From Bacteroidota bacterium (GTDB lineage Bacteria > Bacteroidota > Ignavibacteria > UBA10030 > UBA8401), in the NCBI GenBank assembly GCA_008933835.1, contig WBUG01000002.1:62929-126928 (forward strand): DNA of 64,000 nt. The letters run 5' to 3'. Under the pieces are notes generated by a model. That model did not search any database. It was not told the origin of the DNA and saw only the letters and a list, made by a program, of their open reading frames with translations. Position numbers and translations under genes: made by a program. Each line of letters begins with the position of its first letter. The first letter of the stretch is position 1. Shown piece after piece: positions 52,494 through 55,040 of the stretch.

Positions 52494-52844
52494 ATGCACC
52501 TCCTTCTCTACACGCTGCACGTCGGCGGGATGGCGTTGCTGCTCGTCTCCGCGTTCCTGGTGATGAAGGAGCGCAACACGGCATCACCGCCGTTCCGCTG
52601 GTCCGTCATCATGATGTCCGCGGCGCATACGCAGATCCTGACCGGATTCATCCTCTTCTTCATGCTGCTGACGGAATTGAATCACATGAAGGTGGGGATC
52701 AAAATGTTGCTGGCCATTTCGCTGGCGCTCTTCGCCACATTGCATCACCGCGCGCTCAAGAAGGGGGTGACACCGGCACGATGGTTCATGCCCGTGATCA
52801 TTGCACTCGGAATCACGATAACGGCTATCGCATTTCTTGTGTAG
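52494..52844 (+). CDS. small integral membrane protein, hypothetical
   Basis: Four hydrophobic helices in 116 aa, followed by a clean terminator. Confidence 0.5.
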   Translation: MHLLLYTLHVGGMALLLVSAFLVMKERNTASPPFRWSVIMMSAAHTQILTGFILFFMLLTELNHMKVGIKMLLAISLALFATLHHRALKKGVTPARWFMPVIIALGITITAIAFLV

Positions 52845-52879
52845 AAAAATAAACCGGAATATCGACAATCTTCCTTCCA

Positions 52880-52902
52880 CCCCGATTCCATCGGGGTTTT
52901 TT
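52880..52902 (+). terminator. Rho-independent terminator
   Basis: A ccccgat-tcc-atcgggg stem-loop followed by T6. Confidence 0.7.
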
Positions 52903-53040
52903 ATTTGATAGAGTTGAAATCCTCTAAAAACATTAGAAATTATGTCGATTTCACGAAAACAGAAAACCCTATAAAACTTGGCGTATTATTTGTTGTAACG
53001 ATAAAAGCCTTGATTTTATTATGCAATTTTGTTTTTTCAT

Positions 53041-53068
53041 TTGACATGATGTTGAAAAATCATATATT
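53041..53068 (+). promoter_or_regulatory. sigma70-like promoter upstream of HU genes (TTGACA-N16-TATATT) in AT-rich island
   Basis: Read directly from the sequence. About 280 nt of AT-rich DNA precedes the HU genes. Confidence 0.35.
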
Positions 53069-53132
53069 TACACAGGTTGTTTTAGAGCATCGCTGTAATT
53101 CACTATCCATTCACCCTTAAAAGGAGTCCACC

Positions 53133-53423
53133 ATGGGAAAGGCAATGACGAAATCCCAGATCGCTGCCCACTTTGCCAATAAATTCGGGCTGAAGAAGAA
53201 AGTGGCGAATGAGTTCTTCGTCGAACTGGCGAATCTCGCGTACAAGGAAGCGGCGAACCAGTTCACATTCCCCGGCATCGGGAAATTGGTGCTTGTGGAC
53301 CGTAAAGCGCGTATCGGACGCAATCCTGCCACCGGCGAGACCATTCAGATCCCCGCGAAGAAGGTGGTGAAGTTCAAGGTCGCGAAGGCCGCGAAGCAGG
53401 AAATTCTCAAGAAATTCATCTGA
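53133..53423 (+). CDS. hup: HU family DNA-binding protein
   Basis: MGKAMTKSQIAAHFANKFGLKKK...RNPATGETIQIPAKKVVKFKVAKAAK; RBS aaaaggag. Confidence 0.9.
   Translation: MGKAMTKSQIAAHFANKFGLKKKVANEFFVELANLAYKEAANQFTFPGIGKLVLVDRKARIGRNPATGETIQIPAKKVVKFKVAKAAKQEILKKFI
53329..53377 (+). repeat. 49-nt tract identical to 53654..53702 (shared C-terminal coding segment of the two HU genes)
   Basis: Direct comparison of the two gene sequences. The flanking sequences are clearly diverged. Confidence 0.7.
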
Positions 53424-53457
53424 TATCCATTCACCACTCTATCAATAGGAGTCCTTC

Positions 53458-53745
53458 ATGGGAAAATCGATGACGAAATCGCAGATCGCGAGCCACTTCG
53501 CCGACAAGTTCGAGCTGAAAAAGAAGGTCGTGGTCCAGATCTTTGAAGAACTGGCCGCTTTATCGTACAAGGAAGCCCCGAACCAGTTCACCATCCCCGG
53601 CGTCGGCAAGCTGGTTCTGGTCCAGAGAAAAGCACGCCAGGGCCGCAATCCCGCCACCGGCGAGACCATTCAGATCCCCGCGAAGAAGGTGGTGAAGTTC
53701 AAAGTCGCGAAAGCGGCGAAGGATGCCATCCTCGCGAAGAAGTAA
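53458..53745 (+). CDS. hup: HU family DNA-binding protein (tandem paralog)
   Basis: MGKSMTKSQIASHFADKFELKKK...RNPATGETIQIPAKKVVKFKVAKAAK; RBS ataggag. Confidence 0.9.
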   Translation: MGKSMTKSQIASHFADKFELKKKVVVQIFEELAALSYKEAPNQFTIPGVGKLVLVQRKARQGRNPATGETIQIPAKKVVKFKVAKAAKDAILAKK

Positions 53746-53768
53746 CACTGCGCATACCCGTGCGAAAA

Positions 53769-53797
53769 GTCCATCCGAACGGATGGACTTTTTTTTT
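53769..53797 (+). terminator. Rho-independent terminator after second HU gene
   Basis: A gtccatccg-aac-ggatggac stem-loop followed by T9. Confidence 0.75.
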
Positions 53798-53876
53798 CAT
53801 GGAATCCGTCCGGATTTAGTATATTTCAGTCACATCACACCCTCACCATCCATCAAGAACTCAATTTCGGCTCATC

Positions 53877-55040
53877 ATGATACGTTATCTTACCGCCGGC
53901 GAATCGCATGGACAGGCGCTCGTCGGCATCGTTGAAGGCATCCCCGCCGGAGTTCCTCTTACGGCCGCCTACATCGATCATCAATTGTGGAGACGTCAGC
54001 AGGGGTACGGGAGAGGGGGTCGGATGCGCATCGAATCCGACACGGTGGAGATCCTCTCCGGTGTCCGGTTCGGACGGACGCTCGGTTCGCCGGTCGCATT
54101 GATGGTGCGGAACAGGGATTGGCAGAACTGGACGGAAAAGATGGCGGTGGAGGGGAATGGAAAAGGGATCGAAAAGATAACGCTGCCGCGACCCGGCCAT
54201 GCCGATTATGTCGGAGCGCTGAAGTACGGTTTCGATGACATCCGGAACGTCATCGACAGGGCGAGCGCTCGTGAGACCGCCATGCGGGTGGCATGCGCCA
54301 GTGTGGTCCGCCGTCTTCTGGAAGAAATCGGCATTACCATCGGATCCCATGTCACCTCCATCGGGAAAGTGACACTGGCGGACCGCCGTGCGGTGGACAC
54401 GCTCATCCGGAAGTGCTCTCCAGACATGACGGACATCGCTGATGCCGCGGACGCCTCAGAGGTTCGGATGCTGGAACGGGCCGCGGAAGCGAAGGCCATC
54501 AACATCATTAAATCGTGCAAAAAGAAGGGTGATACGCTCGGCGGAACCTTCGAGGTCCTTGTCGGCGGTGTTCCGGCGGGTTTGGGAAGCTACGTGCAGT
54601 ACGACCGCAAACTCGACGGTCAGCTCGCGGCCGCGGTCATGTCCATCCATGCCGTGAAAGGGGTTGAGATCGGCGATGGTTTCGCGAATTCCGGACGATA
54701 CGGCTCGGAGGTGCATGACGAGCTGCTGGCGAAACGCGGTGTAGTCACCCGTCCCACGAACCGTGCCGGGGGAATGGAAGGGGGGGTGACGAACGGAGAA
54801 CTCCTCGTCATCCGCGGCGCGATGAAACCGATCGCCACACTGGCGCATCCGCTCCGTACGGTCGACATCCGGTCGAAAAAGACCGCCCGCTCCCGCTATG
54901 AACGGTCCGACGTCTGCGCTGTACCCGCCTGTTCGGTCATCGCCGAGGCGGCCGTCGCGCCGGTCATCGCGAACGCTTTCCTGGAGAAATACGGCGGCGA
55001 TTCGCTGCGGGAGGTCTCCGCGCGGTTCAAGCGGCGGTGA
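53877..55040 (+). CDS. aroC: chorismate synthase
   Basis: MIRYLTAGESHGQALVGIVEGIPAGVPL...RQQGYGRGGRMRIESD. Confidence 0.93.
   Translation: MIRYLTAGESHGQALVGIVEGIPAGVPLTAAYIDHQLWRRQQGYGRGGRMRIESDTVEILSGVRFGRTLGSPVALMVRNRDWQNWTEKMAVEGNGKGIEKITLPRPGHADYVGALKYGFDDIRNVIDRASARETAMRVACASVVRRLLEEIGITIGSHVTSIGKVTLADRRAVDTLIRKCSPDMTDIADAADASEVRMLERAAEAKAINIIKSCKKKGDTLGGTFEVLVGGVPAGLGSYVQYDRKLDGQLAAAVMSIHAVKGVEIGDGFANSGRYGSEVHDELLAKRGVVTRPTNRAGGMEGGVTNGELLVIRGAMKPIATLAHPLRTVDIRSKKTARSRYERSDVCAVPACSVIAEAAVAPVIANAFLEKYGGDSLREVSARFKRR

Follow-up and report, generated by a model that had tools for sequence, protein, structure and literature searches.

How did two adjacent genes of the HU/IHF family, which are 76% identical in nucleotides and 78% identical in amino acids overall, come to share a perfectly identical tract of 50 nt? 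We addressed this question in the window, that is, the whole stretch of 64,000 nt of DNA that was analysed, for which the first-pass annotation had proposed either recent gene conversion or selection for identical DNA-binding arms. The locus is composed of the following elements.

52494-52844: small membrane-protein gene upstream, followed by the hairpin at 52879-52897
52879-52897, + strand: terminator-like hairpin with T-run (8-bp stem, 5 GC pairs, then TTTTTATTT), which ends the upstream gene
52898-53110, + strand: AT-rich intergenic region with the promoter, seen in the composition profile
53041-53068, + strand: candidate sigma-70-type promoter (TTGACA at 53041-53046, 16-nt spacer, TATATT at 53063-53068, then a conserved TACAC)
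53133-53423, + strand: HU/IHF-family gene A, 96 aa, RBS AGGAG at 53122-53126, PF00216 E=1e-20
53424-53457, + strand: A-B spacer of 34 nt, which contains the RBS of gene B and no terminator
53458-53745, + strand: HU/IHF-family gene B, 95 aa, RBS AGGAG at 53447-53451, PF00216 E=2e-21
53764-53793, + strand: intrinsic terminator 3' of gene B (13-bp stem and T9)

The spacer of 34 nt and the separate AGGAG sites agree with the first description of this pair, which had given both proteins as 95 aa; protein A has 96. In an HMM search, the two proteins matched PF00216 (Bac_DNA_binding) with 74.2 and 76.5 bits against a gathering cut-off of 22.4, and both covered profile positions 1-89/90. The AF2 model of protein A showed an HU fold (mean pLDDT 80.6) with helices H7-18 and H22-39, five strands and helix H85-95. 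When this model was compared with the PDB by Foldseek, each of the top 39 matches was to HU, to IHF or to a related histone-like protein, and 38 had a probability of 1.00; TM-scores were only 0.36-0.46, because the protein was modelled as a monomer outside its dimer context. Both A and B carry GRNPATGE (residues 62-69), the conserved arm motif R-N-P-x-T-G, and R63, N64, P65, T67 and G68 were invariant in an alignment of 55 sequences. The proline of this motif intercalates into DNA in HU and IHF. Neither protein reached any cut-off of the NCBIfam equivalogs for IHF alpha, IHF beta, HU alpha and HU beta: the best scores were those to IHF-alpha, with 56.2 and 51.9 bits (cut-off 111), followed by at most 41 bits to HU-beta (cut-off 157) and at most 37 bits to HU-alpha (cut-off 162). 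Since they fall below the equivalog cut-offs, A and B are, by profile score, members of the HU/IHF family, and neither is an ortholog of hupA or hupB of E. coli or of an IHF subunit. Protein A ends in a distinctive C-terminal tail, KQEILKKFI. Protein B ends in the ancestral-type tail KDAILAKK and has Gln rather than Asp at position 56; its exact sequence is on record (P0001).

The intergenic DNA upstream of the pair (about 52850-53100) has a GC content of 27-36%, versus 63% for the window, and the AT-rich region could be aligned with its counterpart in 11 relatives. The promoter candidate matches the consensus at 11 of 12 positions, and TTGAC(A/T) and ATATATTTAC recur at constant spacing in all 12 aligned loci, single-copy and AT-rich relatives included; we infer that the promoter at 53041-53068 is functional and used. 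Relatives keep the hairpin AAGTCCATCC...GGATGGACTTTTTT 3' of gene B. We predict that A and B are co-transcribed, because the spacer lacks a terminator and a single conserved terminator follows B. The earlier picture of TTGACA-N16-TATATT lying between two terminators is a real layout, with a promoter sequence that is conserved in relatives. The first 12 nt of the spacer, TATCCATTCACC, repeat the leader of gene A at 53104-53115.

Whether relatives carry one copy or two had been left open in the first-pass annotation, and both states were found. At least 12 lineages, counted at species level among Ignavibacteria/Bacteroidota-like MAGs, have an A-type gene next to a B-type gene, 31-82 nt apart (the window locus WIN, L178, L172-177, L003, L163, L164, L093, L090, L161, L168-170, L182 and L183), and about 155 other relatives have one copy. 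Two copies were present in 3 of 160 related loci in two collection scans. Scans of metagenomes and genomes returned no extra members of the GC-rich clade of the window; the sample of this clade consists of L178 and L172-177, which were recovered by exact-protein look-ups. A single-gene A/B fusion contig (L171) was seen in another lineage. Single-copy HU-family genes from MAGs of Ignavibacteria/Bacteroidota, Nitrospirales and Verrucomicrobiota (for example P0020, P0032 and L021) are 75-88% identical at the protein level, and share with the pair the 4-residue N-terminal extension MGKxM[TS]K, the same arm, the conserved promoter block and the small membrane-protein neighbour. They differ in being one gene, with the B-type tail DAILGKK and the A-type Asp56, and seem to represent the state from which the pair arose. 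On these sequence comparisons, the A/B pair is an old and conserved tandem duplication. Gene A has no amino-acid change versus L172 or L178 at a dS of 0.17-0.25, and gene B has one amino-acid change versus L172 at a dS of 0.36; judged from these substitutions, both copies are under strong purifying selection.

The identity between the copies is confined to the arm-coding part of the genes, where four intervals were delimited.

53328-53377, + strand: first copy of the 50-nt identical tract (gene A nt 196-245, codons 66-82)
53653-53702, + strand: second copy of the 50-nt identical tract (gene B nt 196-245)
53316-53386, + strand: putative conversion tract of gene A at its greatest extent (gene nt 184-254), where A and B show no fixed difference in any of three related species
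53641-53711, + strand: putative conversion tract of gene B at its greatest extent (gene nt 184-254), from the fixed-difference map and dS

The block had first been reported as 49 nt; those 49 positions are exact in both genes, and the match extends one base further 5'. The 50-nt tract occurs twice in the window, with 0 occurrences expected. The maximal tract is limited on one side by codon 61, which encodes Ile in A and Gln in B, and on the other by two synonymous differences, at nt 255 and nt 258. Among the codons that encode the same amino acid in A and B, 27 of 70 differ, and these are unevenly placed, with 22/43 in the N-terminal part and 5/27 in the arm (Fisher p=0.011), and with a run of 16 codons without a difference (permutation p=0.003). 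A drop in dS along the pair, for which the first-pass annotation had suggested windowed estimates as a check, was present, the NG86 value between A and B being 1.40 for codons 2-61 versus 0.28 for codons 62-85. Fixed A/B differences in the three species numbered 46 in nt 1-285 and 0 in nt 184-254, and a gap of that length has P=1.4e-4 under random placement. In nt 184-254, paralog distances (3-8) equalled ortholog distances (3-5), versus 47-50 and 4-15, respectively, in nt 1-183. Neighbour-joining trees gave a corresponding result: in the N-terminal partition the A-type genes of WIN, L172, L003, L163, L164 and L093 grouped by orthology, and in the arm partition A and B of WIN and L172 clustered together. 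On this evidence, a short conversion tract between A and B, superimposed on old tandem duplicates, is the probable explanation.

The strongest competing explanation involves no conversion and attributes the identity to purifying selection on the arm, a parallel shift of both copies to GC-rich preferred codons, and chance. Single-copy relatives from several phyla hardly vary in the arm peptide GRNPATGETIQIPAKKVVKFKVAKAAK, which is nearly invariant in hundreds of relatives, and almost all codons of the tract are preferred, G/C-ending ones. The GC3 of the window lineage is 0.75-0.80 versus 0.26-0.48 in the nearest pair-bearing relatives, a large shift that drives parallel codon changes in both copies. 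The arm also has a higher GC3 (0.85) than the N-terminal part (0.70-0.77), so that stronger codon selection at the most conserved residues could contribute to the identity. Moreover, in each of the 12 pair-bearing lineages, synonymous differences affect a somewhat smaller share of codons in the arm than in the N-terminal part. Furthermore, a strict comparison of fixed with variable sites at synonymous positions only (11 vs 17 in the N-terminal part, 1 vs 10 in the tract) gave a Fisher p of 0.12, and in L178, the sister whose flanking DNA is closest to that of the window, A and B show 8 differences within the 71 nt and 11 within the arm, near the unconverted level. However, a null model of independent codon draws from the usage of this genome expected 19.4/43 differing codons in the N-terminal part, which fits the 22 observed, and 12.3/27 in the arm, where 5 were observed (P=0.002 for at most 5; P=0.002 for the 16-codon run). 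The nominal p-values of 0.002-0.01 are post hoc and overstate the case, since the tract was chosen for its identity. As an empirical control, about 60 independent homologues with a GC3 of 0.60-0.91 were compared with WIN_A or WIN_B, and 7-17 of some 19-26 arm codons differed; the closest had 7/23, and none came near 5/27. Ortholog dS (NG86) was 0.20-0.36 in the arm and 0.11-0.47 in the N-terminal part; because it is not lower in the arm, no extra synonymous constraint acts there. The absence of all 46 fixed A/B differences from the 71 nt likewise counts against this explanation, which we consider unlikely. Codon bias with a GC shift was insufficient as a full explanation in the codon simulation, the approximately 60 controls and the regional ortholog dS, and it probably contributes.

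Selection for identical arms, the other cause first put forward, is a family-wide constraint rather than one specific to the pair, being seen in single-copy relatives of several phyla. Because the arm peptide is nearly invariant throughout the family, the identity of the two arms at the protein level results from purifying selection. Selection could also act on the nucleotide sequence itself and without recombination, for instance through a structured RNA, the target of an sRNA or an element that affects the translation rate; the one observation in favour of this is the restriction of identity to a short segment of both mRNAs. The same segment, however, varies synonymously between orthologs (dS 0.20-0.36) and in ten other pair-bearing lineages, which makes such selection very improbable. 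A search of 52700-53950 against Rfam gave no meaningful match (best E=0.59, in the upstream terminator), and a conserved RNA element in the tract or the leader was rejected on this basis. The least probable explanation, which had been raised at the outset, is an assembly or consensus artefact, with reads of the two paralogs combined or with a jump of the assembly graph from one copy to the other within the shared stretch. In its favour, the sequence comes from a metagenome-assembled genome with copies just 325 nt apart, the Logan contig L180 begins 11 nt past the gene A tract as at a repeat graph break, and the fusion contig L171 exists in another lineage. The artefact is nevertheless excluded: the sequence is reproduced in L179 (an ENA MAG contig) and L180, both 100% identical, and at 99.5% identity in the k141 contig L181, which extends across both copies and has a k-mer longer than the 50-nt repeat, and six independent Logan assemblies of one sister species have the two-gene layout and the low-divergence arm.

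Given a conversion, its age can be judged from the sister species. Flanking DNA is 88% and 91% identical to that of two sister species, and the differences between A and B within the 71 nt number 3 in the window and 4 and 8 in these two. Since the tract, with paralog distances equal to ortholog distances, is shared by the sisters, the best reading is that the ~71-nt tract dates from about the time when the three related species separated, or from earlier, and is not very recent. Gene conversion, as first suggested, remains the best explanation of the DNA identity by dS, the codon null and the approximately 60 controls, but the event would not be recent at the level of strains. Relatives with a uniformly diverged pair had been named as a finding that would speak against a conversion tract. 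Such pairs were found in the more distant, AT-rich relatives, where 8-15 of 24-27 synonymous codons of the arm differ in ten pairs and no identical run is significant; they localise the conversion to the GC-rich clade and do not refute it. At nt 204 and 231, A and B differ in both sister species and are homogenised in the window. The two changes are opposite in direction (at nt 204, A became B-like; at nt 231, B became A-like), and both lead to preferred codons, which also suits an origin of the perfect 50-mer without conversion. They may represent further micro-conversion or two independent mutations to preferred codons, and point mutation would account for them as well as conversion does.

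In L090, L161 and L168, A and B clustered in the N-terminal tree, where their nucleotide identity was 79-81%, because both copies resemble the single-copy ancestral type and protein divergence has been slow. Conversion of the N-terminal part in these three lineages was not adopted as an explanation; the N-terminal synonymous sites are near saturation (19-26 of 47-55 codons differ, dS at least 1.4).

We propose the following history, in which conversion is the preferred reading. One tandem duplication of a unit of ~325 nt, that is, the gene with a leader of ~30 nt containing the RBS, would have produced a two-gene operon for paralogous HU/IHF-family nucleoid proteins. Copy A then gained a new C-terminal tail of the EILKKF type, and copy B retains the ancestral tail, with Gln56 replacing Asp56 in the sub-clade of the window. 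Synonymous sites of A and B are saturated in the remainder of the genes; the DNA encoding the beta-arm retains the longest runs of A/B identity because the beta-arm peptide is nearly invariant in the family. In the ancestor of the GC-rich lineage, homologous recombination probably moved at most ~71 nt (gene nt 184-254) from one copy to the other, as a non-reciprocal gene conversion that would have reset synonymous divergence there; the arm contains no diagnostic site older than the event by which a donor copy or a direction could be assigned. The gene family, the distribution of the duplication, the pattern of divergence and the agreement among assemblies are direct observations; the recombination mechanism, co-transcription and promoter use are deduced. 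The copies would since have diverged slightly again, and the perfect 50-mer of the window would be the least re-diverged core of the tract.

Conversion between duplicated bacterial tuf genes is processive, and stretches in which the sequences differ block it (PMC5485169). The A/B pair resembles tufA/tufB of Salmonella and E. coli in that abundant housekeeping paralogs have stretches that are homogenised non-reciprocally, with tracts bounded by differences (PMC5485169). The tuf genes, however, share ~99% identity over 1.2 kb, are separated by 762 kb and are kept near-identical throughout (PMC5485169), whereas A and B are tandem, 325 nt apart and 76% identical, with a diverged N-terminal part and tail and a tract of at most 71 nt that is deduced from sequence. 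Like HU alpha/beta and IHF alpha/beta of E. coli, the pair represents two PF00216 paralogs in one genome with an identical or near-identical R-N-P-x-T-G arm motif and a diverged helical dimer-interface body. Unlike those genes, which are unlinked, A and B are tandem and probably co-transcribed, and their duplication is independent and lineage-specific. A literature search for tandem HU paralogs or gene conversion in HU genes found nothing relevant.

It is conceivable, though we regard it as rather doubtful, that A and B make up a heterodimeric nucleoid protein specific to this lineage, with an origin separate from that of HU alpha-beta and IHF alpha-beta in proteobacteria and with equal expression from one operon. 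The arm-coding segment would then be a hotspot of recurrent conversion, by which the two DNA-contacting arms stay identical as the dimer body and the new EILKKF tail of A diverge. The current understanding of HU proteins and of gene conversion is unchanged by this locus, which represents ordinary biology. Its value is mainly illustrative, as a compact and well-bounded natural example of what would be partial concerted evolution in bacteria, with a very short tract (at most 71 nt) in otherwise saturated and functionally diverging tandem paralogs, located at precisely the place where DNA identity is preserved by protein constraint. For annotation and phylogeny, it advises caution, as the arm sequences of HU paralogs may depart from the gene tree. 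For the uncultured Ignavibacteria/Bacteroidota-like clade, it defines a conserved two-gene HU operon in which paralog A has a distinctive tail.

The first-pass annotation had described two tandem 95-aa HU genes with their own ribosome-binding sites, between two terminators and behind a sigma70-like promoter in an AT-rich island. This observation as a whole was confirmed. The 34-nt spacer and the length of gene B are as described, and gene A encodes one residue more.

Features of the HU/IHF-family gene pair (window coordinates)
52879-52897: terminator hairpin upstream of the pair
53041-53068: promoter-like site, TTGACA-N16-TATATT
53133-53423: gene A, same strand as gene B, 96 aa, AGGAG upstream
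53458-53745: gene B, same strand as gene A, 95 aa, AGGAG upstream
53316-53386 in A and 53641-53711 in B: stretch without fixed A/B differences (gene nt 184-254)
53764-53793: terminator hairpin downstream of gene B

Both proteins matched PF00216 (Bac_DNA_binding, HU/IHF family) across the full Pfam profile (A, E = 1e-20; B, E = 2e-21), in agreement with the HU assignment, and neither reached an NCBIfam equivalog cut-off (top score 56 bits, for IHF-alpha, cut-off 111); they are therefore HU/IHF-family members without a named subtype. The AlphaFold model of protein A (mean pLDDT 80.6) shows the HU arrangement, with two helices and a beta-arm followed by a C-terminal helix, and its top PDB matches were all HU or IHF. 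The exact sequence of protein B is on record as P0001. Genes A and B are 76% identical in nucleotides and 78% in amino acids, and the direct-repeat unit of the tandem pair is 325 nt with part of the leader included. The identical block, reported as 49 nt, is exact and extends one base further to 50 nt (53328-53377 = 53653-53702), occurring within the window at these two sites only.

The arm peptide GRNPATGETIQIPAKKVVKFKVAKAAK hardly varies among the 120 best homologues, or among 55 aligned sequences from several phyla, so only synonymous sites are informative on conversion. Selection for identical arms, one of the earlier explanations, is real as a constraint on the peptide, but this protein-level identity is family-wide rather than special to the A/B pair. 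In L181 (307-594; ENA ERZ27296381 k141_396186), a strain with 99.5% identity to the window, a GGC to AGC change in the gene B tract gives Gly68Ser (protein P0003) within the otherwise invariant R-N-P-x-T-G arm motif; the change may be genuine variation or reflect a sequencing error.

Of the positions where A and B encode the same amino acid, 43 lie in the N-terminal part (codons 1-61), with 22 differing codons, and 27 lie in codons 62-88, with 5 differing (Fisher p = 0.011); the 16-codon identical run had a permutation p of 0.003. When the codons of both copies were drawn independently from the usage of 41 window genes, 19.4 of 43 differing codons were expected in the N-terminal part, close to the 22 observed, and 12.3 of 27 in the arm, where there were 5 (P = 0.002); the identical run had P = 0.002 under the same null. 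Convergent GC-rich codon use was addressed with about 60 homologues from other lineages (GC3 0.60-0.91); out of about 19-26 arm codons, 7-17 differed from gene A or gene B of the window, and no homologue came near 5/27. Calculated by region, as the first-pass annotation had suggested, A-B dS (NG86) fell from 1.40 in codons 2-61 to 0.28 in codons 62-85. When the window genes were compared with their orthologs in the sister-species loci L178 and L172, dS was 0.11-0.47 for the N-terminal part and 0.20-0.36 for the arm, which indicates that synonymous sites of the arm are no more constrained than the rest.

Comparison of three related species, the window, L178 (flanks 91% identical) and L172/L176 (88%), revealed 46 A/B differences fixed within nt 1-285. 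None of them lies in nt 184-254, a 71-nt gap with P = 1.4e-4 under random placement. In this stretch paralog distances (3-8) equalled ortholog distances (3-5), and in nt 1-183 they were 47-50 versus 4-15. The stretch is bounded by codon 61 on the 5' side (Ile in A, Gln in B) and by nt 255 and 258 on the 3' side. A region-limited reset with diagnostic boundaries and normal ortholog rates is the usual signature of gene conversion, and a short conversion tract is the probable explanation of the local DNA identity. Conversion had been proposed as recent. The equal paralog and ortholog distances in three species argue instead for an event at about or before their split, or a recurrent one, and not for a recent event at strain level. 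Two sites that distinguish the paralogs in L178 and L172, 204 and 231, have become identical in the window through a T to C change in A and an A to G change in B, each towards the preferred codon. These changes produced the perfect 50-mer there; either a later micro-conversion or just two mutations could account for them. No homogenised-arm pattern and no significant identical run were detected in ten more distant pair-bearing lineages, where 8-15 of 24-27 arm codons differ, dS in the arm runs from 0.74 to saturated and the longest identical A/B runs are 14-29 nt. The uniformly diverged pair, named earlier as evidence against a tract, thus occurs in these ten lineages but not in the window, L178 or L172/L176.

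The same pattern could also have arisen by purifying selection, parallel GC-biased codon change and chance, with no conversion, although we consider this improbable in view of the codon-bias null and the homologue control. It is favoured by the post hoc choice of the tract, the large GC3 shift in the window lineage, the higher GC3 of the arm and the 11 arm differences in L178, and also by the outcome of a stricter test. Restricted to codons whose amino acid is shared by all eight sequences, this test gave fixed/variable synonymous sites of 11/17 in the N-terminal part and 1/10 in the tract, which was not significant (Fisher p = 0.12). Selection at the nucleotide level to keep the segments identical is unlikely, as the segment had no Rfam match and varies freely between orthologs. 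An assembly artefact was excluded by L179 and L180 (100% identical to the window), by the k141 contig L181, which runs across both copies, and by the same layout in six independent sister-species assemblies. L180 (Logan SRR29931266_521420) starts at window 53388, 11 nt past the identical tract in gene A, which fits a de Bruijn graph break at a repeat and gives indirect read-level support for a real repeat.

As for how conversion would be seeded, protein constraint may keep the arm DNA the most similar part of A and B, so that the arm would be the only place with identity runs long enough for homologous recombination. A single HU gene was observed in L171 (502-789; Logan contig ERR6226080_2157803, 1056 nt), with 88 A-type codons first (16/183 nt differences from gene A of L003 in the N-terminal part), then a B-type tail, terminator and downstream FKBP gene. 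By blastn, L171 5-773 aligns to the L003 upstream region and gene A, and 501-1056 to gene B and downstream DNA. It is either a natural deletion-fusion, produced when unequal crossover took place in the shared arm, or a tandem pair that collapsed during assembly.

Copy number in relatives was also surveyed. Only 3 of 160 related loci from genome and metagenome collections carried two copies, the others (Ignavibacteria/Bacteroidota-like, Nitrospirales, Verrucomicrobiota and other MAGs) being single-copy. Exact-protein look-ups of A-type (tails QEILKKF, VEILKKF and similar) and B-type relatives found both genes adjacent every time, in unchanged order with a gap of 31-82 nt (L003, L090, L093, L161-170, L172-178, L182, L183). 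The pair is present in at least 12 species-level lineages, the window counted, and A-B synonymous sites in the N-terminal part are saturated in every lineage; the duplication is therefore old. Single-copy relatives such as L021 combine an A-like Asp56 with a B-type tail, which looks like the ancestral state. Between the window and the sister species with 88% identical flanks, protein A had no and protein B one amino acid change at dS 0.25-0.36, and both copies are kept under strong purifying selection.

HU-gene GC3 is 0.75-0.80 in the window lineage (window 53133-53745) versus 0.26-0.48 in the nearest pair-bearing relatives (L003, L163, L164, L093, L182, L183), yet despite this strong base-composition shift the AT-rich promoter region and leader are nearly unchanged. 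Chorismate synthase lies directly 3' of gene B in the window clade (window 53877-55040) and after an acyl-CoA dehydrogenase in L183; AT-rich relatives carry an FKBP-type isomerase, a ferredoxin and a geranylgeranyl-reductase-like gene there (compared with L161, L163, L164, L165 and L182). The upstream side is conserved, with a ~116-aa membrane protein, a ~360-aa protein without a Pfam match and, in relatives whose flank reaches far enough, an Obg GTPase.

Intergenic DNA around the promoter-like site is 27-36% GC against a window average of 63%. The -35 TTGAC(A/T) and the block ATATATTTAC, which holds the -10 TATATT, were kept at equal spacing in 12/12 aligned upstream regions, single-copy and AT-rich relatives included, which lends the predicted promoter good comparative support. 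The window has no terminator between A and B, and one hairpin 3' of gene B is conserved in all lineages, so the two genes are likely co-transcribed. About 150 nt upstream of gene A, a TGGC-N8-TTG(C) motif (52979-52993, TGGCGTATTATTTGT) is kept in 12/12 aligned relatives, though the AT-rich intergenic DNA is otherwise poorly conserved. In L003, L163, L178, L172 and L021 it reads TGGCGTA(N4)TTGC, fitting the GG-N10-GC spacing of sigma-54 promoters, and the window has GT in place of GC; it may be a second promoter or regulator site. A 12-nt string, TATCCATTCACC, is present twice, once in the gene A leader (53104-53115) and once where the A-B spacer begins (53424-53435), 320 nt start to start, the spacer copy being degraded to TGTTCATTCACA and TCGCAATTCATC in the sister species. 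Either it is left over from the duplicated leader, or it marks a second short patch that was homogenised in the window only. In L164 the spacer is longer (432-513, 82 nt), in this one lineage, with an inverted repeat rich in GC and a T-run after it (GCCATAGAACGCACAGCGCTAAATCTGTGGCGATTTTATT), which may be an internal terminator or attenuator uncoupling A and B expression.

Differences between A and B map to helix 1, helix 2 and the first strands, which form the dimer body, and also to the C-terminal helix and to residue 56 at the arm base, where A has Asp and B has Gln. Throughout the sub-clade that runs from the window to L093, this residue and residue 28, which is Phe in A and Ile in B, are diagnostic. 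This pattern is compatible with a putative A:B heterodimer made in equal amounts from one operon, and equally with two putative homodimers with different partners. The locus is a further example of two known kinds, paired HU paralogs and partial concerted evolution.
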